Source: a virus (taxonomy: Duplodnaviria; Heunggongvirae; Uroviricota; Caudoviricetes). From it: a stretch of DNA of 64,000 bases. Position 1 is the first letter of the stretch. Every line of letters begins with the position of its first letter. The notes under the pieces are model-generated. The model saw only the letters and a list, made by a program, of their open reading frames with translations. It searched no databases and was not told where the DNA came from. The position numbers and the translations under genes were made by a program. Below are positions 40,902-63,069 of this stretch, piece after piece. Where the stretch lies: IMG/VR virus record IMGVR_UViG_3300028888_000043, positions 9,756 to 73,755 of that record; one strand, given 5' to 3'.

Positions 40902-42788
40902 ATGAGTCAAAGAGTAATAGATACAACACAAACAGTAACATTCGTACCGGTATCCAGGGACAGAGAAAATAGTAATTTCTATTCCTGGACTATCGGTGGT
41001 GGATCTGGACCATTCCGCGCGGCCGATGCAAGTTCTACTACCAATTATGACACTCTACAATATGTGAGGACAACCGGCGCAGATTCTTATTTTTATTATG
41101 ACTTCAATGTCACCGGAATTCCATCATCGAATGTACTTATAAATTACATAGGCGGTAGGGTACAAATCCGTGTCGCCAATACATCATCATCATACTTTCA
41201 GGTAAAAGAAGTATATTTCACCAACCAGCTACAGAAGCTGACAAGTTCCGGTAACATAAATTCAGCATTGGCACAGAACATAGTCACCATCCCGTCTTAT
41301 GATGATTCCGGCTTGGAGGATTTGGATTTGAATGACATCAAACTGTGTGTCCATCTCGTAAAAGGAACTTCAAACAACAACTCATCAGCATATATCTATG
41401 GCGCAAACCTGGACATCAATTACTCCACATATCATTATGAGTATGACATCACTGTTCTGAACAATACTGACAAAGTGTCAGTGACAGGTGACTCATATAC
41501 TTTATCAGAAGGACAGTCGCAGACAATCTCGTTCGTAATCGCCAATCTCAATGCCATCGCTATCGAGGACAATTTCCAGGACATCAAATCACAACTGGTC
41601 AACACAACCGGGAACACATATACTTATACCATCTCGAATATAGATGATGATCACATCATCACCTGTGAAGACCGGGCGATAGACATCAGTGATGAGGATC
41701 CCAATTATGATTACCACACATTGTCCATTTCAGGAATAAACATCAGTACCGTGCCGGCATTCGGGTCACACAGATATGTGGATGGCAGTAATGTGGTCAT
41801 CAATCTCAATCCTGATGAACCAAATTTGAAACTGGCATTGGACAATGGTGTAGACATCTCAAACGATTTGGTCATCACATCATCATACACCTACACATAT
41901 ACAACATCCAATGTCTCTGGTACTACTTCCTGGACAAACAACAATGGTGTATATTCAAATGGAAATGCTGGAAACAACAGTACAAGATCAACAATACAGT
42001 TCAACTTCAATACGAGCATTCCCTGTCTGGTGACTTTCTATTACTGGGGCGCACTGACCGGAAACGATGCCATCTGCTTTGGAAATCTCAATCAGACCCT
42101 GACAACGGATGGCACACAGGATTCAGCATCAATAAGAAAACATTGGAAGGGCGGCACATTCACATATGCTGAAGCGGATGCATTTGCAGTAAGTTACGAG
42201 AATGTTGAAGGATCCAATTTCGTCCAGGTGAAGGTGAGAAGAAACAACAACACAAGCGGAGCAAGTTACCACACTGCATATGTGAGAGTGGAAATCACCC
42301 CGATGGTACCCGAGACATATCAGTATACTATCTCAAATATGGACACCGATCATTCGCTGGTGTTCGTCTTCGGTGATGTGGTTTATTACACTGTCCAGGA
42401 AACGACATCCCTCACCGGATTAACCGTCTTCCCGACAGGATCCTGGGTGGTACTTCCTGATGATTCATACAAACTGACAGTGATACCGGACAATTCCCTC
42501 ATCCAGTTGGAAGTGGAGGACAACGGAACCACACAGCAGATGGAAAGAGTCGAGTATGTGAATGATAATGATGATGTTATCATCAATTATGTGTATAAAT
42601 TGTTTAACATAAATGAGAATCACATCATCAATATCGTGGAGAAAACACCGGATGTGAAATTATATATGAAGATAAATGGTATATTCACAGAGGTATCGCA
42701 AGTATATAAGAAGATAAATGGAGAATGGATGCCACAGGAAGATATCCTGAATCTGTTCGGGTCAAATGTTGTTTATATAAGCAAGTAA
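40902..42788 (+). CDS. large fibre/structural protein (628 aa), paralog of 38468
   Basis: shared blocks (YTYTLSNI..H.L.FVFG..YY.V......L...P.GS.V.L..DSY.LT..PD); C-terminal KINGIFTEVSQVYKKINGEWMP. Confidence 0.55.
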   Translation: MSQRVIDTTQTVTFVPVSRDRENSNFYSWTIGGGSGPFRAADASSTTNYDTLQYVRTTGADSYFYYDFNVTGIPSSNVLINYIGGRVQIRVANTSSSYFQVKEVYFTNQLQKLTSSGNINSALAQNIVTIPSYDDSGLEDLDLNDIKLCVHLVKGTSNNNSSAYIYGANLDINYSTYHYEYDITVLNNTDKVSVTGDSYTLSEGQSQTISFVIANLNAIAIEDNFQDIKSQLVNTTGNTYTYTISNIDDDHIITCEDRAIDISDEDPNYDYHTLSISGINISTVPAFGSHRYVDGSNVVINLNPDEPNLKLALDNGVDISNDLVITSSYTYTYTTSNVSGTTSWTNNNGVYSNGNAGNNSTRSTIQFNFNTSIPCLVTFYYWGALTGNDAICFGNLNQTLTTDGTQDSASIRKHWKGGTFTYAEADAFAVSYENVEGSNFVQVKVRRNNNTSGASYHTAYVRVEITPMVPETYQYTISNMDTDHSLVFVFGDVVYYTVQETTSLTGLTVFPTGSWVVLPDDSYKLTVIPDNSLIQLEVEDNGTTQQMERVEYVNDNDDVIINYVYKLFNINENHIINIVEKTPDVKLYMKINGIFTEVSQVYKKINGEWMPQEDILNLFGSNVVYISK

Positions 42789-42793
42789 AACCA

Positions 42794-42848
42794 CTGCGAT
42801 TGCGATATGCGAATTGGTCCGTCCATCTGGGCGGATCAATTTTTTTTG
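42794..42848 (+). terminator. TGCGA repeat (CTGCGATTGCGATATGCGAA) plus terminator hairpin plus T8
   Basis: TTGGTCCGTCC-atct-GGGCGGATCAA (2 G-U pairs) then T8 then GTAAAAAAGTG. Confidence 0.7.
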
Positions 42849-42859
42849 TAAAAAAGTGT

Positions 42860-42906
42860 AAAAAAAATTTGGTAGTCTCGTTTTTTTGTTGTATCTTCGT
42901 ATCAGG
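42860..42906 (+). promoter_or_regulatory. class-A consensus promoter (variant -7 TATCTTCG)
   Basis: AAAAAAATTTGG...TTGTATCTTCGTATCAG. Confidence 0.5.
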
Positions 42907-42926
42907 AAATAAAAAGAACAGATATT

Positions 42927-43691
42927 ATGAAAAAGTCCGACATCATCGACGCCCACAATGCCCTCCTCAACAAGCTCAAGACCGTCCTTGCAGAGTACAA
43001 GGCACTCACAGGTCTGGACTATCCCAAGGCAGACTACCTCATCTCCCAGCTTGGTCCCTACACGATGAACTGGGGCAAGGAATCCCTCCAGAATCGCCTC
43101 AATGAGCGTCAGAATGCCATCATCACCATCCCCCAGGAGGCTGACATCTATGTCAAGACCGAAGAGATGAAGTCCTCCGAGGAAGGTCAAGCTTTCATCG
43201 CCTCCCTGGAGAAGTGCCAGACTGACATCTTGGCAGAGATTCACAATCTCTCCAAGGATTTTGTCGCCAAGTTCAATGAGATGCTTGCCATCTGTGGTCT
43301 CAAGGACTGGGAGATTGTCACCTATAAGAACCTCGAGAAGAACGCCCTCCCCCATATCCTTCCTTCTTTCGGCAAAGAGTTCTTTGACATCGTGAAGAAG
43401 GACATGATGTATGCCAGAGTCCATATCCACATCGGTTGTGACCATGGTGAATGGAAGATGAGTGTGGCTGCCGGTATCAACGGAGGAACTGTCCTCGGCG
43501 AGAATGGCGAAGAGTATCAGCAGTTCAAGGCATACATCACCATCTGCGACCATGCCAAGGCCTTCCAGATTTGGATGAACAACACCTATAATAAGATGGC
43601 CGAACAGATGAAGTCCCTCCTGGCTGCCCTTGACAAGGCTGACGAGGCAGTCCGTGACCCATACGCTGCCTGGATTGCATCAAAGAACTAA
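42927..43691 (+). CDS. hypothetical protein (254 aa), C-biased codon usage
   Basis: ORF after promoter; antisense ORF 42762-43553 rejected. Confidence 0.5.
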   Translation: MKKSDIIDAHNALLNKLKTVLAEYKALTGLDYPKADYLISQLGPYTMNWGKESLQNRLNERQNAIITIPQEADIYVKTEEMKSSEEGQAFIASLEKCQTDILAEIHNLSKDFVAKFNEMLAICGLKDWEIVTYKNLEKNALPHILPSFGKEFFDIVKKDMMYARVHIHIGCDHGEWKMSVAAGINGGTVLGENGEEYQQFKAYITICDHAKAFQIWMNNTYNKMAEQMKSLLAALDKADEAVRDPYAAWIASKN

Positions 43692-43763
43692 AAAAGTCAA
43701 GATTCTTTGAAACTTTTTCCAGGATTACAGGTATTATATAGTGAACCTTTAGAAGACACAGAC

Positions 43764-44588
43764 ATGATTAACTACACCAACATCACAGAGAACATCAACA
43801 TCTATTTCCGTGAAATCCGCAAGTTCCAGAACATGACCAAGGAAGATGAGGATATCCTTTTCTTCCGGGTGTCTCAGGGAGACAACTCTGCCGTCACTGA
43901 AATCTTCAACAAGATGGCGAAGCTCGCAGTCGCAACTGCAAAGACCTATACATCCGACCCAGACCTCCTTCAGGATCTCATCCAGGAGGCAAACTGCGGA
44001 ATCCTGGAGGCCATCCGGAAGTTCAACCCTTCAATGGGCTTCCGCTTCTCCTCCTATGCCCGCTGGTGGATGAAGGCGAACATCTCCAAGTTCCTTAATG
44101 AGAGCATGACTGTCCATCCTTCCAATGGGAGACTGATAATCATCGCCAAGAGAATCCGCCAGGAGTTCTTCAAGGAGAACCAGAGGGAAATCACCGAGTG
44201 TGAACTGATGGATCTCCTGGAAGAGAGAGGAGAGGTAGTCACTGACATCACCGCCATTTTGTCAGTCACTGTCGACAGTATTGACAAAGTGTCAGGTGAC
44301 GATGACAGCACCTTTGAGCAGTCCAAACTGTTCAACTCCAGGTCCGCCATCGACAATGACTATCTGTGTGTGGAGGAGAATGAGAGTCTCTCCGATGACA
44401 TTGATGGTCTGCTGAACAGACTCACCATCCGTGAAAGGACTATGGTGAAGATGAAGTTCGGTATCGGCTTTTCCGAGATGGAATATCCCGACATCGCCAA
44501 GAAGTGGGCAAGGATGACCGGTGAGAAGGTGATGAGTGCGGAGAGAGTCCGTCAGATCGTGGTAGGCGCTCTCAAAAAAATGAAGTAA
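43764..44588 (+). CDS. sigma-70 family RNA polymerase sigma factor (regions 2-4)
   Basis: DLIQEANCGILEAIRKFNPSMGFRFSSYARWWMKANI (region 2.1-2.4); LTIRERTMVKMKFGIG...SAERVRQIVVGALKKM (region 4.2); ATG start (track start 43707 is TTG). Confidence 0.75.
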   Translation: MINYTNITENINIYFREIRKFQNMTKEDEDILFFRVSQGDNSAVTEIFNKMAKLAVATAKTYTSDPDLLQDLIQEANCGILEAIRKFNPSMGFRFSSYARWWMKANISKFLNESMTVHPSNGRLIIIAKRIRQEFFKENQREITECELMDLLEERGEVVTDITAILSVTVDSIDKVSGDDDSTFEQSKLFNSRSAIDNDYLCVEENESLSDDIDGLLNRLTIRERTMVKMKFGIGFSEMEYPDIAKKWARMTGEKVMSAERVRQIVVGALKKMK

Positions 44589-44607
44589 CCCATAAAACAG
44601 AAAAGAT

Positions 44608-45213
44608 ATGAAAAGCAACTCTGACATCATCTACGTCATCAGCGCCCTGGTCGTGGTCGTCATCTTCCTGGGAGGTCTTAAACTTTTCATCGACCAGGAC
44701 AACAAGGATAAGGTGACCGAGACCATCATCGAACCCTCCCAGCAGGAACAGGTTGTTGACTTCAGTCATAATCCCGACCTCTACTACCAGTCTCTCCTCT
44801 ACAAGAGTGACAAGGGATTCAAGGAGATTGGTCTCTACACCATCCTCGGTCCCGACTATGACAAGTTCAACTATGTGGTGGATGCCGATCCTGAAATCCA
44901 GGAATATATGGACAAGACCCTCAAGGGATACTGCCACCAGACTCTCAACCTGTTCAATATGGCCTGGAATGATATGAAAGAGAATGACCTCTATGACGGT
45001 CATATGATCAATGTCCTGGAATCCATCATCCGGCAACAGAAAATGTTCCTGAATAAGTATGGATCTGCCAATGTGAAGGAATATGCCAAGACCAATATCT
45101 TCCGGGATGAGAATATCAACCTCGCTGCAGCCTATGAGACAGCTGCAAAGATGAAGAAGGTTGAAATGCTCGACCACTTCACTACAGAATATGAATTAAA
45201 AAACACCAAATAA
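44608..45213 (+). CDS. membrane-anchored protein (201 aa)
   Basis: N-terminal TM IIYVISALVVVVIFLGGL. Confidence 0.45.
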   Translation: MKSNSDIIYVISALVVVVIFLGGLKLFIDQDNKDKVTETIIEPSQQEQVVDFSHNPDLYYQSLLYKSDKGFKEIGLYTILGPDYDKFNYVVDADPEIQEYMDKTLKGYCHQTLNLFNMAWNDMKENDLYDGHMINVLESIIRQQKMFLNKYGSANVKEYAKTNIFRDENINLAAAYETAAKMKKVEMLDHFTTEYELKNTK

Positions 45214-45442: not shown

Positions 45443-45823
45443 ATGATCAGGAAGACCGGAGAATACTCCAAGATGAAGAAAATGGATCTATCCAAGTGGG
45501 TGGTGACCAAGTTCTACCACTACACATCCTGTGCAAGGGATGTCTTTGCCGAGTATGATCCATTCTGGCATGAACCTGCCTGGGGTGACCCCTATGTGAA
45601 AGAGGTGTATGACCATTTCCTGAAATGTGCCGATGCCTACCTCAACTATCCAAAGATAGATTTTGCATCCCTGGGCAACCAGAACAAGACAACCATAGAG
45701 ATTTTCAACATCAAGACCGGAGAGAAACTATACCTCACCCAGTATGACGGCCGCTACTCCATCGGCAGGGATGTGTGGAGTGAGTTCGGTTATGTAACAG
45801 AATTTGGAATCATCAAGAAATGA
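45443..45823 (+). CDS. hypothetical protein (126 aa)
   Basis: ORF; ATGA overlap with next. Confidence 0.45.
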   Translation: MIRKTGEYSKMKKMDLSKWVVTKFYHYTSCARDVFAEYDPFWHEPAWGDPYVKEVYDHFLKCADAYLNYPKIDFASLGNQNKTTIEIFNIKTGEKLYLTQYDGRYSIGRDVWSEFGYVTEFGIIKK

Positions 45824-46191
45824 GTGTCTGGGCAGACATACACAAGAGGAGTAACGGCACCACTGTCCGGAAAGAAGATCTTCCCCAGGGGTATGATCCA
45901 ATCCTGGAAGAGAGGATGAAGAAGTATGAAGAGGAGAGGAAAATAGAGGTGGCAAAAGCAGAGAAAGAACAAAGGTTCCTGGACATCTGGGACAGTATCT
46001 GTCTTGCTATGGTCATCATCATGATTTTCTCTTCTGTAGTGACTGTAACCTGTGTCTTGATGTATGGTAATTATTTACCCATCTGGCTGATGGTGATCTT
46101 TTGTTCGTCCGCATTCGCCAGTATGGTAATGTCCATTGGTGGAATGTATTTCAATGATATGAGAAGTCATATACGAAAATATCTGGAATGA
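45820..46191 (+). CDS. MSIW-leader family member 4 (123 aa; C-terminal 2 TM)
   Basis: MSVWADIHKRSNGTTVRKED; hydrophobic C-terminal half. Confidence 0.6.
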   Translation: MSVWADIHKRSNGTTVRKEDLPQGYDPILEERMKKYEEERKIEVAKAEKEQRFLDIWDSICLAMVIIMIFSSVVTVTCVLMYGNYLPIWLMVIFCSSAFASMVMSIGGMYFNDMRSHIRKYLE

Positions 46192-46445
46192 GTATCTGGT
46201 CTGACATACACAGAAGATCCAATGGTCTTGCCATCAGGAAAGAGGATGACATCCAGCAGGAACCGCCGATAATAGACCTGGACTTTTCATCCTTATATCC
46301 AAGGACCATAATCTTTGATCATCCGGAATCACTGTCTGATGGTTCAGGTCAGAATCATACACAGGCAGACTTTGATGAGTTGTTGAAAAAATATTTAAAA
46401 GAATTAAGAGATGAGCGTCTGGGCAGATATACACAAGAGGAGTAA
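46188..46445 (+). CDS. MSIW-leader family member 5 (85 aa)
   Basis: MSIWSDIHRRSNGLAIRKED. Confidence 0.55.
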   Translation: MSIWSDIHRRSNGLAIRKEDDIQQEPPIIDLDFSSLYPRTIIFDHPESLSDGSGQNHTQADFDELLKKYLKELRDERLGRYTQEE

Positions 46446-46932
46446 CGGTGTCTCCTTGAAAAAAGAGAAGGTCGTCTTCAAGGAGATGGTCTATTCTTCT
46501 TACAGGGAAATTGAAATCATTGCCCGCAATGTCTACAAGGGAGTCGAGTACTTTGTTGTGAACATCGGAATCCATCCCTGTGCATATGTGGTCTGTGAGA
46601 AGGAATTCCTTGACAAGCATAGAGATGAATGGGGTGACATCGATGGCATCAGTGTCCATGGAGGAGTGACCTATACTGGAAAACTCTCTGCTCTATCTGC
46701 TTTCGATGATGACCTGGAGCTGGAAGATGTATATTGCTTCGGTTGGGACTATGGCCATTGCGGCGACTGGTCAGGATACCTGACTGACTTCCAGAATGGT
46801 GAAAACAGGAAGTATGATACTTGGATGGTGGTTGATGATTGCAAGTCTGCCATCGACCAGTACCTGGAAAAGAAGAAACAGGATGACTCACTGGCAACCC
46901 TGACCTACACCGGATCATACTGGGTGGCATAA
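46411..46932 (+). CDS. MSIW-leader family member 6 (173 aa); C-terminal domain paralogous to stand-alone gene 46998-47684
   Basis: MSVWADIHKRSNGVSLKKE; shared GIHPCAYVVC..VHGGVTYTG..CFGWDY..DW domain. Confidence 0.6.
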   Translation: MSVWADIHKRSNGVSLKKEKVVFKEMVYSSYREIEIIARNVYKGVEYFVVNIGIHPCAYVVCEKEFLDKHRDEWGDIDGISVHGGVTYTGKLSALSAFDDDLELEDVYCFGWDYGHCGDWSGYLTDFQNGENRKYDTWMVVDDCKSAIDQYLEKKKQDDSLATLTYTGSYWVA

Positions 46933-46939
46933 ATATCAG

Positions 46940-46974
46940 AGGCGATGTCAAGGCATCGCTTTTGTTATATTTAA
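46940..46974 (+). terminator. terminator hairpin plus class-B element TTTTGTTATATTTAA
   Basis: GGCGATG-tcaagg-CATCGCT then TTTTG. Confidence 0.55.
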
Positions 46975-46997
46975 ATGATATAAAAGTGTTTCAGGTT

Positions 46998-47684
46998 ATG
47001 AAGGAAATCATCTACAACCATCAGCCCAATTTCTTCGAGATAGTTGATGAGGGTGAATACAAGGGTGTGAATTACATCTGTATCAACAGGGGAATCCATC
47101 CGGCAGCATGTGTCATCTGTGATGAGAGGTTTCTCAAGAAGCACACCAGTAAGGGAGGTATCATAGAGTGCATCACTGTCCATGGAGGGATGACCTATTG
47201 TGGTGACATCAGTAAGGTGAAGCAACTTGAGGGTCACACTGGTCATTGCTTTGGCTGGGAGTACAACAGGAACAATGACTGGGCCGGATTCTGGACAGAT
47301 GAGGAGAACATCAAGGCGGGCAACCACAAATGGACAACCAAGGAACTGGTATATGACTGTCACCGGGCTATCGACCGCTACCTGGAGATTATGGAGAAGG
47401 ATAATATCCTCGACCCGGTGACCAGTCCGCTCATCACCAAGGATGATCTCAAGAACCTGGGATTCCACTCCATCTATGAGATGATGAAGAATGATGAGGA
47501 GAGTGCCTTCCAGTTAAATGGAGTCAATGATGGGAACAAGTGGTCCATCTATGTGGATCTCCAGACTCCCAGTCTGTCCTATGCCAGGAATCAGAGTCCG
47601 AGAAGGAAGTATGAAGGAAGTATCCTGACTATGGAGGAACTCCGGATGGTGGTGGATCTCTGTGACATCCCTATAGATATTTGA
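46998..47684 (+). CDS. hypothetical protein; paralog of the C-terminal domain of MSIW member 6, lacking the leader
   Basis: GIHPAACVICDERFL..VHGGMTYCG..CFGWEY..DWAGFW; ATG start (track start 46962 is TTG inside the class-B element). Confidence 0.5.
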   Translation: MKEIIYNHQPNFFEIVDEGEYKGVNYICINRGIHPAACVICDERFLKKHTSKGGIIECITVHGGMTYCGDISKVKQLEGHTGHCFGWEYNRNNDWAGFWTDEENIKAGNHKWTTKELVYDCHRAIDRYLEIMEKDNILDPVTSPLITKDDLKNLGFHSIYEMMKNDEESAFQLNGVNDGNKWSIYVDLQTPSLSYARNQSPRRKYEGSILTMEELRMVVDLCDIPIDI

Positions 47685-47691
47685 CGAATCT

Positions 47692-47718
47692 GCGATTATG
47701 CGATTGCGGCCAGAATTT
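47692..47718 (+). repeat. TGCGA tandem-repeat element (CTGCGATTATGCGATTGCGG)
   Basis: same element family as 29545, 42794, 49152, 61516, 63034. Confidence 0.6.
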
Positions 47719-49195
47719 CATCTGTAATTGCATAAATCTTTTTCTTATATGAACTCCAACCAGCAGCGGCCTTATAAGCATCCACAGATTCTGCTGGAAC
47801 ATAGTAGCCACTCACCATATACCATTGAGAACCATTTCCAGTCGCTTCCCTTGTAGGAGGAGTAGTTGCAAGACATACCACCTTGAGACCATTTGCAGCA
47901 TACTGACCTGATCTATCACCGATATATGTCAAAGTAGAAGGGAAGACAATGTACTGACAGACCTCATTGTTCTTGTCATACCAGGGACAGACCTGTGTGT
48001 ATGCACCATTGTCCATCTTTGCCATAAAATCCCTGAACGATCCGGCCATCAGTTTGGTGACACCTTCCGCTATCTTGACTACATTCTGCTTTGACAGACC
48101 ATAATCAGCACCGCCATAACAGATAGTTCCATCCTTGGAGTAGACAATGTTGTTGACTGCTTTGAAGTTTGGATTGTTTTCATCTATGGTGATGGTCTCA
48201 AGCATATCCCAGAAGACGTCATTGTATTGACCGGTATAATCTGCGCCATTACCCAGTGTCTGAAGTCTTTCACCAATGTGTATCTCTCTCGGTGAAAATT
48301 GATTTGAAAACACTTCTTCACCAAACAACATCAATCTTGGAAGGTTCAATATCTCCTGGAATTTACCTGGATATGTATCATAGATATTGGAAAATGCGCC
48401 GTGACCTATATATGTAAGAGTATCCGGGAGTAATTGAGTACCTCCTGGAATACCTGATGTCTGGGCATATCCTATACTTGAACCAGCAAAAGCATAATTC
48501 TGGATAACATTCAATCCCTGGTTCATATTCACATGGGACAATTCACCACAGAAGGCGAACGCCTGTACGCTCACCTGCTTCAGTGTGGACGGGAAGGTAA
48601 TCTCCTTCAGTTTGCTGTTCCTGAAACAGTAGTTTCCGATTATCATCATACTTGGAGGAAGAGTTATACTCTCAAGGTCATATGCACCGAAGAATCCACC
48701 CTGCTTGGCTGCCTGTTCTTCATATGTGGTGTCTGTGAAAGTGGTCTTCGTGACATTCACAAAGAACTGGAACTCATCAAAATGCTTCAGGTTGGCAAAA
48801 GTGAGAGACCTGTAACCTCCAGGTGTGGATGAATCCGACACAAGTATGTTGGCTGCATTGAATGAATCATTTGTAACAGCAATCGCCTGGTCAATGGTCA
48901 TGAATGTGTCTGTCTGTCCCACCCAACCGGCATTCCTGGCGATTTCCATCGCTTCCGGGTTGGACTGGTTGGTCATTATCTTCCTGTAGAAGATTTTCTT
49001 CTTCCATTTTTCTGTGTCTGTCGTCTTCAATGTACACAAAGTAGGATAGTTCACCGGGTTTTCCGAGACATCTTGGATGTATTCATCCACTGTATTGTAT
49101 TCTTTTAAATACTTCATAACATAATAGTCCTTTATATTATTTATGACCTTTCTGCGAATCTGCGACTGCGATATGCGATAGACTGAAATCCACAT
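47696..49195 (-). CDS. BspA-type leucine-rich-repeat protein (499 aa), minus strand
   Basis: repeated I(G/Q)NYAF..C..L..I.(L/F)P units (ITLPPSMMIIGNYCFRNSKLKEITFPSTLKQV...); both ORF ends lie inside TGCGA-repeat elements. Confidence 0.55.
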   Translation of the reverse strand: MWISVYRISQSQIRRKVINNIKDYYVMKYLKEYNTVDEYIQDVSENPVNYPTLCTLKTTDTEKWKKKIFYRKIMTNQSNPEAMEIARNAGWVGQTDTFMTIDQAIAVTNDSFNAANILVSDSSTPGGYRSLTFANLKHFDEFQFFVNVTKTTFTDTTYEEQAAKQGGFFGAYDLESITLPPSMMIIGNYCFRNSKLKEITFPSTLKQVSVQAFAFCGELSHVNMNQGLNVIQNYAFAGSSIGYAQTSGIPGGTQLLPDTLTYIGHGAFSNIYDTYPGKFQEILNLPRLMLFGEEVFSNQFSPREIHIGERLQTLGNGADYTGQYNDVFWDMLETITIDENNPNFKAVNNIVYSKDGTICYGGADYGLSKQNVVKIAEGVTKLMAGSFRDFMAKMDNGAYTQVCPWYDKNNEVCQYIVFPSTLTYIGDRSGQYAANGLKVVCLATTPPTREATGNGSQWYMVSGYYVPAESVDAYKAAAGWSSYKKKIYAITDEILAAIA

Positions 49196-49228
49196 AATCT
49201 GATGGTGGATTTTTTTTGTAAAAAAGTG
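49152..49228 (+). terminator. TGCGA repeat x4 plus GACTGAAATCC plus hairpin plus T7 plus GTAAAAAAGTG
   Basis: AATCCAC-ataatctgatg-GTGGATT then T7. Confidence 0.6.
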
Positions 49229-49274
49229 AAGAAATATTTGGCGGTCTCGTTTTTTCTTTGTATCTTTGTAACAG
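49229..49274 (+). promoter_or_regulatory. class-A consensus promoter
   Basis: GAAATATTTGG...TTGTATCTTTGTAACAG. Confidence 0.55.
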
Positions 49275-49293: not shown

Positions 49294-49446
49294 ATGAACA
49301 AGGTTTACATCTACAAGAAGAACTGCAACACCGGTGATACTAAACCTTATACCTATGTCAACTCCGAGGAAGATGCAAAAAGTACAGTCAGTGAACTGAA
49401 CCGCTGGGCACCTTATCCCTACACTTATTTCTATCTTCCTAACTAA
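49294..49446 (+). CDS. hypothetical mini-protein (50 aa)
   Basis: first ATG after promoter (MNKVYIYKK...). Confidence 0.35.
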   Translation: MNKVYIYKKNCNTGDTKPYTYVNSEEDAKSTVSELNRWAPYPYTYFYLPN

Positions 49447-50336: not shown

Positions 50337-50675
50337 ATGGATTACAATGAAATCAAGAAGAGATTGGGGATGAACTCCAGAACAGAGACTGTCAAGTGCA
50401 GTTGCTGCGGCAAGGAGCTCACTGTCCCCAATATGTACAAGAGACAGGACCTGGACATCCTAAAACCCTACTGTGGTGCAGCAACCGTGCTCACTATCCA
50501 GTGGATGATTCATCACGGGTGGCACATCACCGCCCTGGATGATGAACACAAGAGTCGTTTCTACTGCCCAGACTGTTTCCTGGAAGGAACACCGGAGTAC
50601 CAGGAAGCACCTTATGCAAAAGACTGGTGTGAGCAGGCCGGAGAGTGGATGAAGGAGAATGATGGCAAGCAATGA
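50337..50675 (+). CDS. Cys-rich Zn-finger-like protein (112 aa)
   Basis: CSCCGKE...YCG...YCPDCF. Confidence 0.4.
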   Translation: MDYNEIKKRLGMNSRTETVKCSCCGKELTVPNMYKRQDLDILKPYCGAATVLTIQWMIHHGWHITALDDEHKSRFYCPDCFLEGTPEYQEAPYAKDWCEQAGEWMKENDGKQ

Positions 50676-50908
50676 GCATCTGGGCTGACATGCACAGGAG
50701 ATCCAACGGTACTTCCATCAGGAAGGAAGATAAGGTGATTCCTGAAAAACCACAGGAGAACTGTATGCATGGTAGACCGTTGAGTTATGATTACGGGAGT
50801 AAAATCTACAAGACATACACCTGTGATTTTGGGAGTAAAATCTACAAGACCTCAGATCTTGATGACATGTTGGACAATTTAAAGAAGGATTATTATTTCT
50901 TTTACTAA
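50672..50908 (+). CDS. MSIW-leader family member 7 (78 aa)
   Basis: MSIWADMHRRSNGTSIRKED; C-terminus contains duplicated SKIYKT motif. Confidence 0.55.
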   Translation: MSIWADMHRRSNGTSIRKEDKVIPEKPQENCMHGRPLSYDYGSKIYKTYTCDFGSKIYKTSDLDDMLDNLKKDYYFFY

Positions 50909-50934
50909 TTAGTTTAACCCCTAAAATATTTAAT

Positions 50935-51540
50935 ATGCTTCAGAAAGTAAGCAAGGCCAATATCAAGGCCATCAACAACATTCTTCAGCAGCAGGCGCAA
51001 CTCGGAATCATCCTCGGGGTGACCAACATCCAGCAGAACCGCTATATGCGTGACTGTTCCACTGGCGAGATGGTGGGTGTCGACAAGATGAACACCGACC
51101 TCCATGGCTGGGATGGCATCTTCAAGAATGGAAAGTACTTTGAGAACAAGAACGTGAAGGTAAATGCCAAGGCAGGTACTTCCTACTCCCTCACTTTCCG
51201 TGACACCTCCGCTGGAAAGCTCATTGAGATGACCGATGGTGTCATCGCTGTCCAGTCCTTCTGGGGAGATGACGGCAAGCGTGCCTTCTCTATGGTTGGT
51301 AACACCAACTATGTCGGTGATTACCTGGAGGAAGCCTGGAATCCTGACTCCAGGTACACCACATCTGTCAGCATGTCCCGCTGCCTCAAGCGTGGATTCA
51401 AGCTGGTCGCCGGCACTTACACCAAGCAGCAGGTCATCGACACCATCAAGGAGAAATTCCCCCGGCTCGGCAGTACCCTGACACCTGCTGACATCTACAC
51501 CGAGAAGCAGGCCAAGAAACTGGTTGCATCAATGATGTAA
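50935..51540 (+). CDS. hypothetical protein (201 aa), C-biased codon usage
   Basis: ORF. Confidence 0.5.
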   Translation: MLQKVSKANIKAINNILQQQAQLGIILGVTNIQQNRYMRDCSTGEMVGVDKMNTDLHGWDGIFKNGKYFENKNVKVNAKAGTSYSLTFRDTSAGKLIEMTDGVIAVQSFWGDDGKRAFSMVGNTNYVGDYLEEAWNPDSRYTTSVSMSRCLKRGFKLVAGTYTKQQVIDTIKEKFPRLGSTLTPADIYTEKQAKKLVASMM

Positions 51541-51542
51541 TC

Positions 51543-51603
51543 TTCTGCGGTCACGAACTGCGAATACCAGGGGACTGAAAAAAAGTGGAAAAAAGTCCCC
51601 TGG
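51543..51603 (+). terminator. degenerate TGCGA element plus long-loop hairpin overlapping the -33 region
   Basis: CCAGGGGACT-16 nt-AGTCCCCTGG; no T-run. Confidence 0.4.
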
Positions 51604-51645
51604 AAATTTGGAAAATCCGGAAAAAAGCATTATCTTTGTAACAGA
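51601..51645 (+). promoter_or_regulatory. class-A consensus promoter
   Basis: GGAAATTTGG...GCATTATCTTTGTAACAG. Confidence 0.5.
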
Positions 51646-51760
51646 AAGGAAGACATAAAGGTTCATACCGCAACAATCGCCAAAAGATGTTAAAGTAAAC
51701 AAGAAACCCTTTGGAACCTTGTTAACTATCTTCCTAATGAACCAAAAAAGAGTAACAGTC

Positions 51761-52009
51761 ATGAAAAAAGTCACTGCCGAAGAACTGCACAAGATGCTCT
51801 GCCAGGGAACTGTCAAGTTCCAGTACACCAAGAATGACGGTTCGGTCCGCACCGCAGTCGGAACCCTCAAGTCCTCCCTCATCACACGGAAGCCCGGCGG
51901 CGGAGAGAACAAGGTCAAGGGTGCAGGGTACACCACATATTTCGATCTGGAGAAAGATGCATTCCGCTGCTTTGCAGAGTCCAAACTCCTGGGTGTGATT
52001 GAGAAGTAA
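51761..52009 (+). CDS. hypothetical protein (82 aa); stand-alone paralog of the C-terminal domain of MSIW member 8
   Basis: VKFQYTKNDGSVRTAVGT...GYTTYFDLEKDAFRCF..LLGV; start uncertain (ATG 51719, 51737 or 51761). Confidence 0.4.
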   Translation: MKKVTAEELHKMLCQGTVKFQYTKNDGSVRTAVGTLKSSLITRKPGGGENKVKGAGYTTYFDLEKDAFRCFAESKLLGVIEK

Positions 52010-52029
52010 ATCATCAAAAGGAGAAAGAT

Positions 52030-52572
52030 ATGAATCTCGTCACAGTCACACTCGACATCAGTTGGGATGAATCTCCCAAGTATGTCATCCCTACATCCAA
52101 CTTCCACAATGCCTACATCATCGGTGTCCCCTGCAAAATCCTGGCCTCCCCGTATGTCGGGAAATGGACCAACTATGTCCGCACCAGGATGACAAAGCTC
52201 ATCGATATCCAGTCCTGTGTGACAGGTATCAAGTACACCATCCCATATGAGTGGGTAAGGTCTTTCAAGTCACTGGTGGACGCCAATGACCAGGCCGAGA
52301 TTATCGGGCATCACTTCCCGGAGGTGACAGACCTCATCGGAAAACCCTACTGGCCCAGGGATGACTCCTATATCTCCGACCTTGACGGCAATTCCTCTGG
52401 AAGACTTTTTCATCAGCGGTGCGAAATCGTCTCCGTCCCGTTTGATGACACTATCAAGGATATGGTGGGTAAGGACATCACATATAAGTTCATCCTGGTG
52501 AGATATGAGGGAAAAATCTACAGAACTCTCTTTCAGGAATATGCACTCTATGAACCGGAGAGTCGATGGTGA
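52030..52572 (+). CDS. hypothetical protein (180 aa)
   Basis: ORF. Confidence 0.45.
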   Translation: MNLVTVTLDISWDESPKYVIPTSNFHNAYIIGVPCKILASPYVGKWTNYVRTRMTKLIDIQSCVTGIKYTIPYEWVRSFKSLVDANDQAEIIGHHFPEVTDLIGKPYWPRDDSYISDLDGNSSGRLFHQRCEIVSVPFDDTIKDMVGKDITYKFILVRYEGKIYRTLFQEYALYEPESRW

Positions 52573-52633
52573 ATTTATGATTTATGAATTGCAAATCGCT
52601 ATAAATACTGTATACAATCAAATCCAGTAAACT

Positions 52634-53017
52634 ATGAGCATTTGGTCTGACATGCACAAGAAGAGCAATGGTGAATTCCGTAGGGAAGATGCTTTCATCT
52701 TCCAGGAGATCACTCCGGAAGAACTTGCCAAGATGTTCACCAAGGGTATCGTGCATTTCAAATACAGGAAGAAGGCGAAGAAAGGTCAGCCCTGGGACAG
52801 CGGAGTCGAGAGAGAGGCCTGGGGGACCAAGAATATGAGTGTGGTCTCCAAGATTCCTCACGGAGGTTACTGTCCTCCAAAGCAGGCTGGTTACACTATC
52901 TACTTCGATGTGGAGAAGGCAGACTGGAGAGCATTTTCCGATTACCTGCTGCTTGGTGTCTGTTCACATATCTTCACAGAAGAAGAGTACACTAAATTCA
53001 TCAATAATGAAATGTAA
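52634..53017 (+). CDS. MSIW-leader family member 8 (127 aa)
   Basis: MSIWSDMHKKSNGEFRRED; C-terminal IVHFKYRKK...GYTIYFDVEKADWRAF..LLGV domain. Confidence 0.6.
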   Translation: MSIWSDMHKKSNGEFRREDAFIFQEITPEELAKMFTKGIVHFKYRKKAKKGQPWDSGVEREAWGTKNMSVVSKIPHGGYCPPKQAGYTIYFDVEKADWRAFSDYLLLGVCSHIFTEEEYTKFINNEM

Positions 53018-53052
53018 TAACAATTGTTGTTAACCTTTAAAATCTTTAAAAC

Positions 53053-53298
53053 ATGCGCAAGTACAAGTCTATCCGCACCATCCTGCTGGACTTCGTGGCG
53101 AACAATGGTCCGCAGACCTGGAATGAACTCCACAAGGTTGTCCTCACTGTCGCCGGTCAGCCTCTGACCCGCAACGAGTATGGCAGCTCCTACCTTGACC
53201 AGGTATCCGAGGGCACTTCCGTCTGCTTCCCGACCCGCACCGAGCGCCGCTACCTCTACAAGCGAGAGGACGGTCTCTATGACATCGCCAGTCTGTAA
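53053..53298 (+). CDS. hypothetical protein (81 aa) with markedly GC-rich codon usage
   Basis: about 57 percent GC versus about 40 percent surroundings; strong terminator downstream. Confidence 0.5.
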   Translation: MRKYKSIRTILLDFVANNGPQTWNELHKVVLTVAGQPLTRNEYGSSYLDQVSEGTSVCFPTRTERRYLYKREDGLYDIASL

Positions 53299-53327
53299 AA
53301 CCCAGACAAACAGGTGCAAAAAAATCG

Positions 53328-53366
53328 TCACCAGGATGTAAATCCTGGTGATTTTTGTTATATTTA
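53328..53366 (+). terminator. Rho-independent terminator plus class-B element
   Basis: TCACCAGGAT-gtaa-ATCCTGGTGA then T5 then GTTATATTTAATG. Confidence 0.75.
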
Positions 53367-53398
53367 ATGTGTAAGTAATTCTAATAGAAAGTAAAAGT

Positions 53399-54010
53399 AT
53401 GGATAAACTCAATTATGCCCTTGGTCTTTATGTGGGGACATATATGGTAAGAGGAGGAATCGAGAAGGTTGATTCCGTTGATGATTTTATGGCAGGTATC
53501 AACACTGTCCTCAACGATACGGATCTCGCAATCCCGCAGGAGGAGGTGAATGAGACTCTCAAGTCCTTCTTTGGTGAGGTTCTCAGGAAGAGGGAAGAGC
53601 AGGAAAAGAAGGAAGCCGCGGAGAATCTCAAGAGAGGTGAGGAGTATCTCAAAGAGAACCTCACCAAAGAAGGCGTGAAGAAGACCGACTCCGGACTCCA
53701 GTACAAGATCCTCCGGGAAGGAACTCTGATGAAATGGCCTAACGCCCACAGCAGAGTGAGAGTCCACTATGAGGGCAAGTTCATTGACGGTACAGTGTTC
53801 GACTCCTCCTACCAGCGTGGAGAACCAGTCGAATTCGGACTGGACCAGGTGATCCCTGGGTGGTCAGAGGGTGTATGCCTGATGAAACCTGGAGCGAAGT
53901 ATGAACTCACATTGCCGGCACATCTGGCATATGGTGAAGTGGGTGTCCCCGACAGGATTCCTGGGAACAGTGTCCTGATTTTCACTGTTGAACTCCTTGA
54001 CATCCTGTAA
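53399..54010 (+). CDS. FKBP-type peptidyl-prolyl cis-trans isomerase (FkpA/Mip-like)
   Basis: GLQYKILREG..P.....V.VHYEGKFIDGTVFDSSYQRGEPVEFGLDQVIPGWSEG...PGAKYELTLPAHLAYG. Confidence 0.85.
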   Translation: MDKLNYALGLYVGTYMVRGGIEKVDSVDDFMAGINTVLNDTDLAIPQEEVNETLKSFFGEVLRKREEQEKKEAAENLKRGEEYLKENLTKEGVKKTDSGLQYKILREGTLMKWPNAHSRVRVHYEGKFIDGTVFDSSYQRGEPVEFGLDQVIPGWSEGVCLMKPGAKYELTLPAHLAYGEVGVPDRIPGNSVLIFTVELLDIL

Positions 54011-54012
54011 CT

Positions 54013-54441
54013 ATGGAAATCAAGATCAATATTGATGAGTCCAAGTTCCAGGAAGTCCTGGAAAAGGAACTCGGAGCATTCACCCAGGATGAACTCCATA
54101 AAATCCTTGTTGAGGCAATGAAGGAGTACCTCAACAAAGAGGATGTCATCAAGGCATACCTGGAAAAGAATGAGGTGGATAGATGGGGATCACCGGTAAG
54201 AGGATCCAGTACTATGGATAAACTCATCCAGAATGTAGATCTGAATGATGTCCTGGCAGAACCAAAGGAGAAAATCAAGAAGATTATCTCTGAAAATAGT
54301 ACTTTGAAGAATGTGGCCATAGAACTCCTGGCAAATATGTTCAAAAGTAATTTCAGGAATGCCTTCATCCAGGATTACCAGTTTATGGAAGAACTTGCGG
54401 GAAGAGTAGCATACTCGCTTGAACAGATGAAGCAGAGATGA
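54013..54441 (+). CDS. hypothetical protein (142 aa)
   Basis: ORF. Confidence 0.45.
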   Translation: MEIKINIDESKFQEVLEKELGAFTQDELHKILVEAMKEYLNKEDVIKAYLEKNEVDRWGSPVRGSSTMDKLIQNVDLNDVLAEPKEKIKKIISENSTLKNVAIELLANMFKSNFRNAFIQDYQFMEELAGRVAYSLEQMKQR

Positions 54442-54454
54442 GTCTGATGTAATG

Positions 54455-54545
54455 TCCTGAAACCGTAGACGACGTAGACACCGTATACGGTATACGTGTA
54501 TACGTGTATACTGAAGTAGACTGAAGTCCAGAGACCTGGACAGAA
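54455..54545. repeat. array of short palindromic/direct repeats (CGTAGACGA CGTAGACAC CCGTATACGG TATACGTG TATACGTG; TGAAGTAGAC TGAAGTCCAG; GTCCAG-agac-CTGGAC)
   Basis: read directly; replaces the usual hairpin in the inter-unit cassette. Confidence 0.6.
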
Positions 54546-54626
54546 TGTCAGGATATGAAATCCACTGACGACCATCTGCCATCTGCGACGACGAACTGCG
54601 AAAGAAAGATTTTTGAAAAAATGTGA

Positions 54627-54670
54627 GAAATATTTGGATATGTCGTTTTTTTGTAGTATCTTTGTAATAG
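54627..54670 (+). promoter_or_regulatory. class-A consensus promoter
   Basis: GAGAAATATTTGGATAT...GTAGTATCTTTGTAATAG. Confidence 0.55.
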
Positions 54671-54698
54671 AAAAAGAAACCAACAGAAAAACAAAGAC

Positions 54699-54953
54699 AT
54701 GAAACTCATTGCTGACATTTTCAACTACATCCTCCTTACCGGAGCGTTCCTTTTTGCAGTGGCGCTTTTCATCCAGACGAACAGAGAACTCTGGGAGAAC
54801 TTCAAGGAAGACTATGGTGACTGGTTCAAGAGCACCAGAATCGGGATGTGGTTCAACAACAGGAAGAATGGAGTAACCATCCTCACAGACGATGAATATG
54901 AGAATCTCCAAATGACTGGAAAGATTATTCCCATTGAAGTTGTGGAGGATTAA
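54699..54953 (+). CDS. small membrane protein (84 aa)
   Basis: TM helix LLTGAFLFAVALFI. Confidence 0.45.
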   Translation: MKLIADIFNYILLTGAFLFAVALFIQTNRELWENFKEDYGDWFKSTRIGMWFNNRKNGVTILTDDEYENLQMTGKIIPIEVVED

Positions 54954-54956
54954 GTT

Positions 54957-55127
54957 ATGGCAAGAGAGAAGAAAATCTTTGACATCTATGTCGACTATGA
55001 GTATGGTTGTGATGAGACCTACACCGTTGAGGCATACACCCTGGCAGAGGCCAAGAAGAAGGCAAAGAACCGCTTTATGAGGGAATACTTCAAGAAGTCC
55101 TATGTAAAGGCTTTAAAAGCATACTGA
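54957..55127 (+). CDS. basic mini-protein (56 aa)
   Basis: MAREKKIFDIYVDYEYGCDETY...; below cutoff. Confidence 0.3.
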   Translation: MAREKKIFDIYVDYEYGCDETYTVEAYTLAEAKKKAKNRFMREYFKKSYVKALKAY

Positions 55128-55139
55128 TACAAGTTCCGA

Positions 55140-55270
55140 AGCGGTCTGGAATAAACCGTTCGGTTCCATAAGATTGCAGAGGAACTTTTATATGTTGTTT
55201 TCATGTTGTTATGTGTTTTTGGGGTGTCAGTATGTTGGGAAATATACTGACACCATTTTTTTAAGAAATT
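55140..55270 (+). terminator. intergenic double hairpin (CCGAAGCGG..CCGTTCGG; GGTGTCAGTAT-gttgggaaa-TATACTGACACC then T7)
   Basis: second hairpin is a 11-12 bp stem followed by a T-run. Confidence 0.55.
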
Positions 55271-55278
55271 TTATTATT

Positions 55279-55770: not shown

Positions 55771-55790
55771 GATTATAAGAAACTGTAATT

Positions 55791-56628: not shown

Positions 56629-56653
56629 AAAAGAATAAAAGCATTATTTAGAG

Positions 56654-57001: not shown

Positions 57002-57013
57002 TCTGACATTGCA

Positions 57014-61620: not shown

Positions 61621-61662
61621 GAAAAGAGAACAACGGATTTTTAACGATAAACTATAACAGCA

Positions 61663-63010: not shown

Positions 63011-63033
63011 TGTGGAATGACATTGTGCGATTG

Positions 63034-63057
63034 CGATTTGCGAATATGAAATCCGCT
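63034..63057 (+). repeat. TGCGA tandem-repeat element (GTGCGATTGCGATTTGCGAA) plus GAAATCC
   Basis: no clear hairpin here. Confidence 0.5.
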
Positions 63058-63069
63058 GAAAAAACCTAA

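Follow-up and report, generated by a model that had tools for sequence, protein, structure and literature searches.

How does a single gene come to lie antisense within a long block of genes that otherwise run in one direction, and do the short repeats at its ends have a part in placing it there? The question is raised by a 64,000-nucleotide stretch of DNA (hereafter, the window), which belongs to a phage contig of 410,934 bp from a very large Bacteroidota phage. A preliminary description of the window had pointed to a lone reversed gene for a protein with BspA-type LRRs, and this gene is indeed the sole convincing minus-strand gene from about 26.3 kb to 64 kb, the remaining long minus-strand ORFs of that interval being antisense within plus-strand genes. 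Here, the coding status of the gene, the repeated elements around it, and its position in related phages are examined in turn.

Coding status and start of the reversed LRR gene

The mechanical ORF comprises 499 codons on the minus strand (47696-49195). Its product matches Pfam LRR_5 (PF13306) with an E value of 2.5e-22 and 79.6 bits, against a cutoff of 27.7; it has 13 full-length homologues; comparison with the relative L004 yields a dN of 0.075 and a dS of 0.427 (dN/dS of about 0.18); and an AlphaFold model shows a confidently predicted LRR solenoid (mean pLDDT 87.6). On these grounds, the reversed ORF is a real gene on which purifying selection acts, and a reading of it as non-coding was rejected based on the dN/dS between relatives.

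The ORF as called is nevertheless too long. The 13 homologues measure 438-471 aa, cover only 95% of the 499-aa query, and mostly open with a MKYLKEY-like sequence that aligns to M27. Further, an in-frame stop lies upstream of the corresponding ATG in 8 of the 8 relatives checked. The true start codon is therefore the ATG at 49117, and the CDS encodes 473 aa (Table 1), which corrects the 499-aa database call by 26 codons. The superfluous N-terminal extension (MWISVYRISQSQIRRKVINNIKDYYV) contains the stretch RISQSQIRR, which had been described as a protein terminus encoded by a TGCGA array and which now proves to be an artefact of ORF calling; the array in question is non-coding DNA, 36 nt upstream of the start codon.

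Assignment of the protein to the BspA-like type is upheld by the LRR_5 match, far above cutoff, and by the solenoid model. Foldseek retrieved 4fd0, 4fdw, and 4h09 at a probability of 1.0 with low TM-scores (0.23-0.36), the curvature differing; among bacterial structures, the model resembles 4fd0/4fdw, LRR proteins from the cell surface of Bacteroides, and among viral ones it comes closest to an LRR protein from a crAss-like phage. No signal peptide-like stretch was seen in the N-terminus (MKYLKEYNTVDEYIQDVSENP), which is hydrophilic as judged by eye, and no Pfam domain beyond LRR_5 was found in the protein. A relation to the LRR tip of the fibre gene at 32691-35072 had also been suggested. The two proteins do share LRR_5 repeats, but nothing specific (BLASTP E value of 1e-5; 26-32% identity over 50-150 residues), and a specific kinship was rejected since the similarity is at the level of the repeat family. 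The earlier proposal that the protein may serve as a receptor-binding or host-interaction module is plausible.

Table 1. Features at and around the LRR gene, in window coordinates.
Feature	Position	Strand	Remark
Empty site C	42789..42812	+	Three-copy TGCGA array upstream of a 254-aa gene and a sigma-factor gene; equivalent boundary occupied in L002/L003
228-aa gene (from its ATG)	46998..47684	+	Convergent with LRR gene; stop 11 nt from LRR stop
Left copy of 11-bp direct repeat CGAATCTGCGA	47685..47695	+	From empty-site alignment
Left TGCGA pair	47691..47703	+	First copy from target array; second from insert, overlapping last codons and stop of LRR gene
LRR cassette CDS	47696..49117	-	BspA-type LRR_5 protein, 473 aa; start is M27 of mechanical ORF
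Inserted segment, 1,459 bp	47696..49154		Missing from empty site of eight close relatives; begins with reverse-complemented stop codon of LRR gene
Spurious 26-codon extension	49118..49195	-	Non-coding leader plus upstream DNA; in-frame stop in 8/8 relatives
CATAAATA motif	49138..49145	-	Candidate T4-type late promoter of cassette; 20 nt upstream of ATG
Right TGCGA array, four copies	49153..49178	+	Last three copies are the resident array of the empty site
Right copy of 11-bp direct repeat CGAATCTGCGA	49155..49165	+	From empty-site alignment
Stem-loop with T-run	49185..49220	+	Plus-strand intrinsic terminator; in fold of 49150-49215, stem 49185-49193 with 49205-49213
Early promoter, Bacteroidota host type	49237..49270	+	TTTGG, 19 nt, TATCTTTGTA; drives 50-aa gene
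50-aa early gene	49294..49446	+	Right neighbour of cassette in window and L004, and of empty site in relatives
Empty site B	63021..63043	+	ATTG plus three-copy TGCGA array; occupied in L008/L015, L009/L011, L010, L013, L021, L024

Composite elements and a candidate late-type promoter motif

The TGCGA arrays reported to flank the gene are real and far above chance, with 16 matches to TGCGA-N0-4-TGCGA in the window versus 0.08 expected. The left 'array' consists of just two TGCGA copies, one from the target site and one from the insert, plus a degenerate TTGCGG; the LRR gene does end within it, as had been observed, the last two codons (I-A) and the stop overlapping the pair in the window and likewise in L004. 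The right array is followed by a terminator hairpin, which is kept in the empty-site relatives, and by an early promoter. The same order of array, hairpin, and promoter occurs at 29546, 42795, 49153, and 61517, while an element at 63026 has no hairpin and one at 25918 has an array and hairpin only. T-run hairpins were found at 25915, 29543, 42792, 49150, and 61514 (z from -1.7 to -7.0), all of them, save that at 25915, directly followed by promoters of the form TTTGG-N17-24-TAnnTTTGTA. Host-type early promoters number 15 on the plus strand of the window and none on the minus strand, and a scan for sigma-70 promoters around the LRR gene gave a background level (6 found versus 5.8 expected). No terminator was detected between the 228-aa gene and the LRR gene, the minus-strand fold of 47640-47720 yielding no hairpin (z of 0.04). 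An Rfam scan of the window returned no family; the arrays and hairpins thus do not correspond to any RNA family described there. In IMG/VR, TGCGATTGCGANNTGCGA was matched 41 times, always singly, which is about the chance level expected from the length of the pattern, and multiple arrays were not seen on any contig.

The promoter of the LRR gene appears to be of another kind. The CATAAATA motif upstream of its start occurs 10 times in the window, versus 2.85 expected, and all but one of these copies lie upstream of ORF starts, including those at 32691, 35164, 38468, and 40902 and those of all three minus-strand genes. The motif is kept upstream of the LRR gene in L004, L008-L010, L021, L024, L003, and L005, is replaced by CCGTAAATA in L001, and differs in the distant relative L022 (ATTTATAG). 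Late promoters of T4-type phages read TATAAATA in T4 and KVP40 and NATAAATA in cyanomyoviruses (PMC2984593). In L005, a T4-like structural module includes a 43%-identical LRR homologue, which lies beside a gp13-like neck gene and runs in the same direction. The window proteins scanned included no homologue of gp55, gp33, or gp45. Nor was any T4 core structural or late-transcription protein recognised in the window, and its fibre-like genes have no matches to structural-protein families; it does encode a Dda-like helicase and a thymidine kinase. By analogy with T4-type promoters, the LRR gene is probably expressed late from the CATAAATA motif, which it has in common with the large fibre-like genes and a holin-like gene.

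Empty, occupied, and alternative sites in related phages

Eight close relatives (L011, L013, L014, and L016-L020), all of which share an 81-aa protein of the window exactly, lack the LRR gene at this position (site A). Their undisturbed site reads tgaCGAATCTGCGAcTGCGAtaTGCGA, with a single copy of the repeat and the resident array (tga-CGAATCTGCGA-cTGCGAtaTGCGA). The empty-site junction was defined as ...TTTGACGAATCTGCGACTGCGATATGCGATAGACTG... and the predicted circle junction of the cassette as ...TATTTATGACCTTTCTGCGAATCTGCGATTATGCGATTGCGGCC.... In the window, the insert is flanked by an exact 11-bp direct repeat, CGAATCTGCGA; blastn breakpoints against relatives fall at 47708 and 49151. The cassette thus lies inside one split array, and not, as had been proposed, exactly between two inter-unit elements. 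In L004, TCTGCGA stands on both sides of the cassette, and homology to the window begins exactly at TCTGCGA, inside the array.

The cassette also occupies other boundaries. At site B, an array near the right end of the window that is empty there, close relatives carry an LRR allele only 51-55% identical to that of the window, and in L011 and L013 an empty site A and an occupied site B are found on one contig. Site B junctions have no flanking duplication. Equivalents of site C are occupied in L002/L003 and a fourth boundary, site D, in L001. The CATAAATA motif adjoins an array or a degenerate equivalent at all four boundaries, the distance from the end of the cassette promoter being 0-6 nt to the first TGCGA at sites A and B and 0-8 nt to the degenerate equivalent at sites C and D. 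At the opposite end, left flanks in L008-L010, L021, and L001 contain a degenerate array plus a TGAA(A/G)TCCACTGA hairpin, a piece of another inter-unit element; a terminator hairpin is present at the 3' end of the cassette in L001, L003, L008-L010, and L021 and not in the window or L004. The synteny comparison among relatives, with empty, occupied, and alternative sites and junctions at arrays, thereby bears out the initial suggestion that the cassette sits at the TGCGA elements and that these are implicated in its exchange. In L002, a 639-aa plus-strand gene had been called next to the LRR gene, but this is most probably an ORF antisense to real genes, given that the sigma-factor and 255-aa genes of L003 are recovered at that position by tblastn. 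The same holds for the 124-aa (L008) and 135-aa (L010) calls that appeared co-oriented, both of which run antisense within the homologue of 62501-63010.

An in-situ inversion had been considered because TGCGA copies flank the gene at either end; on this view, a formerly plus-strand gene was turned around between two inverted or direct repeats. The flanking repeats, however, are direct and not inverted; no relative has a plus-orientation gene at site A, and eight have no gene there; and the LRR gene is antisense to its neighbours at all four boundaries in different phages, and again in another phage, L022/L023, so that orientation is constant at every boundary found within the early-gene block. 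Inversion is thus extremely improbable and was rejected.

Divergence of the alleles is uneven. The flanks of L008-L010 are about 92% identical to the window in DNA, while their LRR proteins are those 51-55% identical to it; the three site B alleles share 56-68% identity with each other. Conversely, the LRR protein of L004 is 87% identical to that of the window, its neighbouring genes 68-71%, and its left neighbour is unrelated. Since the identities of flanks and LRR proteins diverge in both cases, exchange rather than vertical descent is suggested.

Could an enzyme carry out this exchange? A recombinase or transposase of phage or host might recognise the TGCGA arrays, perhaps together with the hairpin, as attachment sites, the CGAATCTGCGA repeat then being a target-site duplication or core site. 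The exactness of the 11-bp repeat and its single copy in empty sites fit such insertion, as does the right junction, which at each of four independent boundaries adjoins the 5' side of an array or of its degenerate equivalent. A protein at 18281-19084 also matches PHROG 10081, 'transposase' (E value of 6e-72), but has no Pfam, NCBIfam, or PDB support and was dropped as evidence. The cassette itself consists of a single LRR ORF, with no recombinase or transposase gene and no terminal inverted repeats, and site B has no duplication. Moreover, the TCTGCGA on both sides of the L004 cassette indicates that a crossover within 7 bp of microhomology would suffice to produce the window repeat, and the 32-44% difference between alleles at one site is more in keeping with replacement via flanking homology than with repeated transposition. 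Enzyme-mediated insertion is accordingly judged quite unlikely. Similarly doubtful is a reading in which the phage carries a platform for cassette exchange, with the arrays as its dedicated sites of recombination or attachment. On that view, the LRR gene, which would be late, adhesin-like, hypervariable, and present in one copy, moves from one defined slot to another in a giant Bacteroidota phage, and the arrays might in addition serve as an RNA or DNA signal directly 5' of early terminators. Megaphages would then possess a system comparable to integrons or shufflons, based on sites of a new type, for genes of host range or host interaction.

Targeting may also be dispensed with altogether. 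Random illegitimate recombination could insert the cassette in many places, but only insertions that fall after a stop codon and before the following regulatory element would persist, the arrays being purely regulatory. Small dispensable ORFs are abundant in the region, and indels between the window and close relatives at 51997/52585, 54441, and 55305/55793 are not at TGCGA arrays; a 90-aa gene after the promoter at 61583-61626 has its indel junction inside an element. The region is generally plastic, and the association with arrays could partly reflect where insertions are tolerated. Yet harmless intergenic positions are available elsewhere, for example past the promoter or in the gap that separates it from the hairpin, and the cassette promoter nonetheless ends within 0-8 nt of an array or degenerate equivalent. 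The start of window/L004 homology inside the array and the pieces of another inter-unit element in the left flanks of other relatives also count against untargeted insertion, which is considered unlikely.

The preferred reading, with a probability of about 0.65, is that of a late-expressed, hypervariable host-interaction cassette that is shuffled by recombination at terminator-promoter elements resembling the PeSLs of T4-type phages. The cassette consists of a minimal, putatively late-type promoter and the BspA-type LRR gene, with its own terminator hairpin in most relatives, and lies antisense inside a hyperplastic early-gene block of a very large Bacteroidota phage that is punctuated by composite plus-strand elements (TGCGA array, intrinsic terminator, and host-type early promoter). 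In the window lineage, it was inserted into the TGCGA array that follows the 228-aa gene, and the flanking 11-bp repeat resulted; sister lineages have a divergent allele at the 5' edge of another array, and in more distant relatives further boundaries are occupied. Recombination between the repeated elements, in co-infection or within one genome, is the most likely process, and its route may be a double crossover, or excision and re-integration via a circle, using short homology in the arrays, where 7-11 bp are available for crossover. As the elements all run in the same direction, such recombination would leave the cassette antisense. A single mechanism acting uniformly at all junctions would have to accommodate the duplication at site A and its lack at site B. 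The LRR protein is probably a rapidly diversifying ligand-binding module, either virion-associated or engaged in host interaction. Comparative sequence data thus show the gene with its true start, the purifying selection on it, the insertion polymorphism with its junctions, the constant orientation, and the enrichment of the motif, and it is from these data that late timing, the mode of recombination, and the role of the protein are inferred.

Regarding the reach of the homology searches, a megablast search with the 46-51 kb interval found no match among 50,697 phage records, tblastn of the sigma factor gave distant matches only (below 30% identity), and in IMG/VR no related loci were retrieved with the LRR protein, with the 240-aa protein next to it, or with an alignment of the family. 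A metagenome scan added, among the matches listed, at least two family members (L024 and L025), many generic LRR proteins being left out.

These observations document, at base-pair resolution, the relocation of a gene in uncultivated Bacteroidota megaphages, including an empty site, an occupied site, a flanking repeat, and alternative slots. They also flag a fast-evolving, single-copy LRR protein as a likely determinant of host interaction.

Comparison with known systems

Phage morons are independently transcribed extra genes located between conserved genes, a concept derived from the comparative genomics of lambdoid phages. The LRR cassette is likewise self-contained and lies between genes that are adjacent in related phages: it has its own CATAAATA motif, a terminator in several relatives, and an empty site in eight relatives. 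It differs from morons in being antisense in an early-gene block of a lytic-looking megaphage, in being apparently single-copy and relocating among several boundaries, and in having lost its own terminator in the window. Integron cassettes are similar in that promoter-poor single-gene units occupy alternative slots bounded by short repeats with their orientation preserved. Here, however, no integrase is encoded nearby, the cassette lacks an attC-like imperfect palindrome and carries its own promoter, and the slots, instead of forming one array, are scattered regulatory elements.

The encoded protein agrees with BspA-type surface proteins (PF13306; 4fd0, 4fdw, and PcpA, 4cp6) in repeat family and solenoid fold. 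Unlike them, it is phage-encoded, has no signal peptide, export, or anchoring module as judged by eye, and has a conserved N-terminal helical region specific to its family (residues about 41-120). Its putative promoter resembles T4-type late promoters as an 8-bp ATAAATA-containing motif without a -35 element, few to tens of nt upstream of the starts of large fibre-like and holin-like genes; a search of the 64-kb window turned up no homologue of gp55 or gp33, and the likeness rests on the motif.

The closest parallel to the elements themselves may be the PeSL (promoter-early stem-loop) regulatory cassettes of T4-type phages, for which modular shuffling has been described (Arbiol et al., 2010, PMC2839356; Comeau et al., 2014, PMC4122927). 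Both join a terminator stem-loop to a strong early promoter of the host type in a short unit, and both recur in a constant orientation across hyperplastic regions where small ORFs abound; in the present phages, gene content differs extensively among close relatives over 43-64 kb. For PeSLs, the junctions of indels or replacements between close relatives fall inside the elements, which supply portable homology for shuffling. In the present phages, this is the case for the LRR cassette at sites A and B and for the 90-aa gene, while several other indels lie elsewhere. In contrast to PeSLs, the promoter follows the Bacteroidota -33/-7 consensus and not sigma-70, and the shuffled unit is a large antisense gene with a late-type promoter and not a small early ORFan. 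PeSLs are furthermore known from T4-type phages, whereas no T4 core structural protein was recognised among the window proteins. The elements described here also have an extra 5' module of 2-4 TGCGA copies, an added component where the mapped crossovers are found, and with it the idea of PeSL-type shuffling would extend beyond proteobacterial and cyanobacterial T4-type phages.

Occupied and empty sites of the LRR cassette

The window is contained in JGI contig Ga0310697_10000001 (410,934 bp), from which the database locus L012, an exact substring of the window, also derives. Its gene set includes a Dda-like helicase, thymidine kinase, a Thg1-like enzyme, methyltransferases, and a sigma-70-family factor. 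Nearly all window genes are carried by the plus strand and, beyond ~26.3 kb, the BspA-type LRR gene is the sole convincing minus-strand gene. Other long minus-strand ORFs past this point were rejected as genes, as they lie antisense within plus-strand genes whose homologues are conserved. Such ORFs mirror plus-strand genes almost fully (44572-45177, minus, versus 44608-45213, plus; 42762-43553, minus, versus 42927-43691, plus) and could mislead gene callers, as seemingly happened in the related loci L002, L008, and L010. Elsewhere, a 267-aa protein (18281-19084, plus strand) strongly matched PHROG 10081 'transposase' (E 6e-72), with no match in Pfam, NCBIfam, or PDB. Genes 46411-46932 and 46998-47684 are paralogues, and a segment of ~20 aa is common to the small early ORFs at 45820, 46188, 50672, 56138, 56374, 57014, and 57371 (tblastn cross-hits), suggesting that small early proteins of 45820-47684 and 50672-57832 may form an expanded family.

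A look-up of the window's 81-aa protein (53053-53298) yielded ten loci: besides L012, which comes from the window's own contig, nine belong to relatives. In eight relatives (L011, L013, L014, and L016-L020), the 228-aa gene is directly followed by a 50-aa gene, and this empty site A reads tga-CGAATCTGCGA-c-TGCGA-ta-TGCGA-tagactgaaatccac... The window reads tga-CGAATCTGCGA-(1,459 bp)-CGAATCTGCGA-c-TGCGA-ta-TGCGA-tagactg..., with an insert that starts at the reverse-complemented LRR stop codon and ends just beyond the CATAAATA motif of the gene. By blastn, the breaks fall at 47708 and 49151, with one 28-nt stretch of the empty site aligning on either side. Based on these sequences and breakpoints, the cassette sits inside a single array that it has split with an 11-bp direct repeat.

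At site B, the window has just ATTG before the array, and the relatives compared there share ~92% DNA identity with it across 53-64 kb. Both L011 and L013 combine an empty site A with an occupied site B on a single contig; the window has site A occupied, site B empty, and no second LRR family member. These reciprocal sites support the proposal in the preliminary description of an exchangeable cassette tied to TGCGA elements. Inversion, also proposed there, is not supported, since all four sites (A-D), where occupied, carry the gene antisense to those around it. It is antisense as well in a still more distant phage (L022/L023). At sites A and B, 0-6 nt separate the promoter end of the cassette from the first TGCGA; at sites C and D, 0-8 nt separate it from a degenerate equivalent of the array. 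A 43%-identical homologue in L005, a T4-like phage (gp23-like capsid, T4-type portal, and gp13-like genes), is co-oriented and adjoins a gp13-like neck gene.

Positions of cassette sites, motifs, and associated genes (L-numbers are database loci from related phages)
Feature	Window position	Strand	Details	Occupied in	Empty in
Site A	47685-49165		after 228-aa gene	window/L012, L004	L011, L013, L014, L016-L020, L002/L003
Site B	array at 63026		between homologues of 62501-63010 and 63141-63686	L008/L015, L009/L011, L010, L013, L021, L024	window
Site C	array at 42795		upstream of 254-aa gene and sigma-factor gene	L002/L003	window
Site D	no equivalent		after OmpA-like gene in L001	L001	
CATAAATA copies	1599-1606, 5379, 26283, 32663, 35122, 38437, 40890, 46928, 49138, 59818				
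CATAAATA of LRR gene	49138-49145	-	20 nt before ATG		
Holin-like ORF	25973-26263	-	96 aa; two hydrophobic helices, acidic C-terminus; CATAAATA at 26283-26290; converges on array-plus-terminator at 25918-25975		
Sigma-70-family factor gene	43707-44588	+	regions 2 and 4; downstream of array-terminator-promoter element at 42795		
TGAAATCC(A/G)CTGA word	49183-49195, 63047-63059, ~54590, ~57880		also in L001, L003, L008-L010		

Array structure and probable exchange of LRR alleles

TGCGA arrays gave 16 matches in the window versus 0.08 expected. Those at 29546, 42795, 49153, and 61517 comprise 2-4 TGCGA copies with 1-3 nt spacers after a plus-strand stop codon. Directly downstream of each are a stem-loop plus T-run and then a Bacteroidota-type promoter (TTTGG-N17-24-TAnnTTTGTA), of which the window has 15 on the plus strand and 0 on the minus strand. 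The element at 63026 keeps this order but lacks the hairpin. At 25918 there are just an array and a hairpin, and a reversed late-type gene separates that element from the next promoter. More distant relatives have degenerate array versions (e.g., CGACTGCGA or GGCGACGA), and Rfam has no family for the arrays, hairpins, or promoters of these window elements. A second conserved word, TGAAATCC(A/G)CTGA, recurs beside TGCGA arrays, often as the 5' arm of the terminator hairpin.

The LRR alleles appear to have spread by exchange rather than descent. Site B alleles share just 51-55% identity with the window protein despite flanks that are ~90% identical, and three of them (P0004, P0005, and P0006) share 56-68% identity among themselves. 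In L004 the pattern is reversed, with an LRR protein 87% identical to that of the window and neighbouring genes only 68-71% identical; the left neighbour of its cassette is an unrelated 57-aa gene, and homology to the window starts exactly at TCTGCGA-tta-TGCGA. The left cassette flanks in L008-L010, L021, and L001 carry a degenerate array and a TGAA(A/G)TCCACTGA hairpin, which are part of another inter-unit element and double as the cassette terminator. This hairpin is lost in the window and L004, where the LRR gene stops right at the array and folding predicted no terminator at its 3' end. Allele P0006 (L010 7976-9331) looks mosaic, being closest overall to P0004 (68%) with stretches of its C-terminal half that read like P0007/P0008, which indicates likely recombination within the LRR gene. 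Four close relatives (L011, L014, L016, and L020) lack a 180-aa gene of the window (52030-52572), whose junction is at ...AAATCGCTATAAATA, not at a TGCGA array.

Gene model, late-type motif, and predicted protein

The mechanical ORF (47696-49195, minus strand, 499 codons) is present and has a BspA-type LRR_5 domain (Pfam, E 2.5e-22). A search of ~5.8 billion proteins recovered 13 full-length relatives (41-87% identity, 438-471 aa), and the MKYLKEY-like start of most homologues aligns to ORF residue 27. Because the frame upstream of this ATG is interrupted by a stop in all eight relatives examined, the coding sequence is 47696-49117 (473 aa); in L004, nearly identical in DNA upstream of the ATG, the stop falls inside the array. 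The preliminary observation is partly confirmed: the gene, its reversed orientation, and its flanking arrays are real, and 'RISQSQIRR', the N-terminus that the array was said to encode, is an artefact rejected as protein sequence. The public gene call (L012 4644-6143) is this 499-aa ORF and is too long; counted from the conserved start, the protein has 473 aa.

In the window, CATAAATA occurs 10 times versus 2.85 expected, nearly always upstream of ORF starts. It precedes the large genes at 32691, 35164, 38468, and 40902, at 4 nt to several tens of nt, and all three minus-strand genes (the LRR gene, 631-1560, and 25973-26263), and persists upstream of LRR homologues even at only 43-57% protein identity. 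Late promoters of T4-type phages are TATAAATA or NATAAATA (PMC2984593). The motif is a candidate late promoter of the window megaphage, and the LRR gene is inferred to be expressed late. In three cases just 4 nt separate the end of CATAAATA from the ATG, suggesting that late transcripts may lack a leader.

Between the window and L004, dN is 0.075 versus a dS of 0.427, and the LRR gene is therefore under purifying selection. Residues 41-120 and 281-360 are the best conserved; the LRR face (121-260) and the part near the C-terminus are the least conserved. In an AlphaFold model (mean pLDDT 87.6), the first 45 residues are poorly defined and a small region of helices precedes the long LRR solenoid, with best structural matches to Bacteroides putative cell-surface LRR proteins (4fd0 and 4fdw) and a crAss-like phage LRR protein. 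The protein shows no visible export signal and is therefore not a surface protein of the bacterial kind. It resembles the putative fibre gene 32691-35072 only in generic LRR_5 repeats (E 1e-5), and the specific link suggested earlier is not supported. The gene is single-copy, strongly divergent, and mosaic among otherwise alike phages, and this pattern, together with the late-type motif and the neck-adjacent place in L005, would fit a virion-associated or otherwise host-interacting binding module.

Possible mechanism of exchange and known systems

Repeated co-oriented inter-unit elements would supply short homology for crossover within arrays, either with a co-infecting relative or via an excised circle. 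Array crossover would account for the 11-bp direct repeat of site A, for homology with L004 being bounded by the array, and for an antisense orientation that never varies. The homology usable for such crossover is only 7-11 bp, site B has no flanking duplication, and several further indels of the region do not fall at arrays. Less probably, a dedicated enzyme that recognises the arrays might move the cassette; neither a recombinase gene nor terminal inverted repeats were found in the cassette. The cassette is rated as PeSL-like modular shuffling or a moron. In T4-type phages, promoter-early stem-loops (PeSLs) are terminator-promoter cassettes that mediate ORF insertion, deletion, and replacement and form mini-circles (PMC2839356, PMC4122927). 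The proposed array crossover likewise uses terminator-promoter elements as shuffling homology. Unlike PeSLs, the window elements have an extra TGCGA module, where crossovers map, and a Bacteroidota-type promoter, and their cargo is a large antisense late-type gene.
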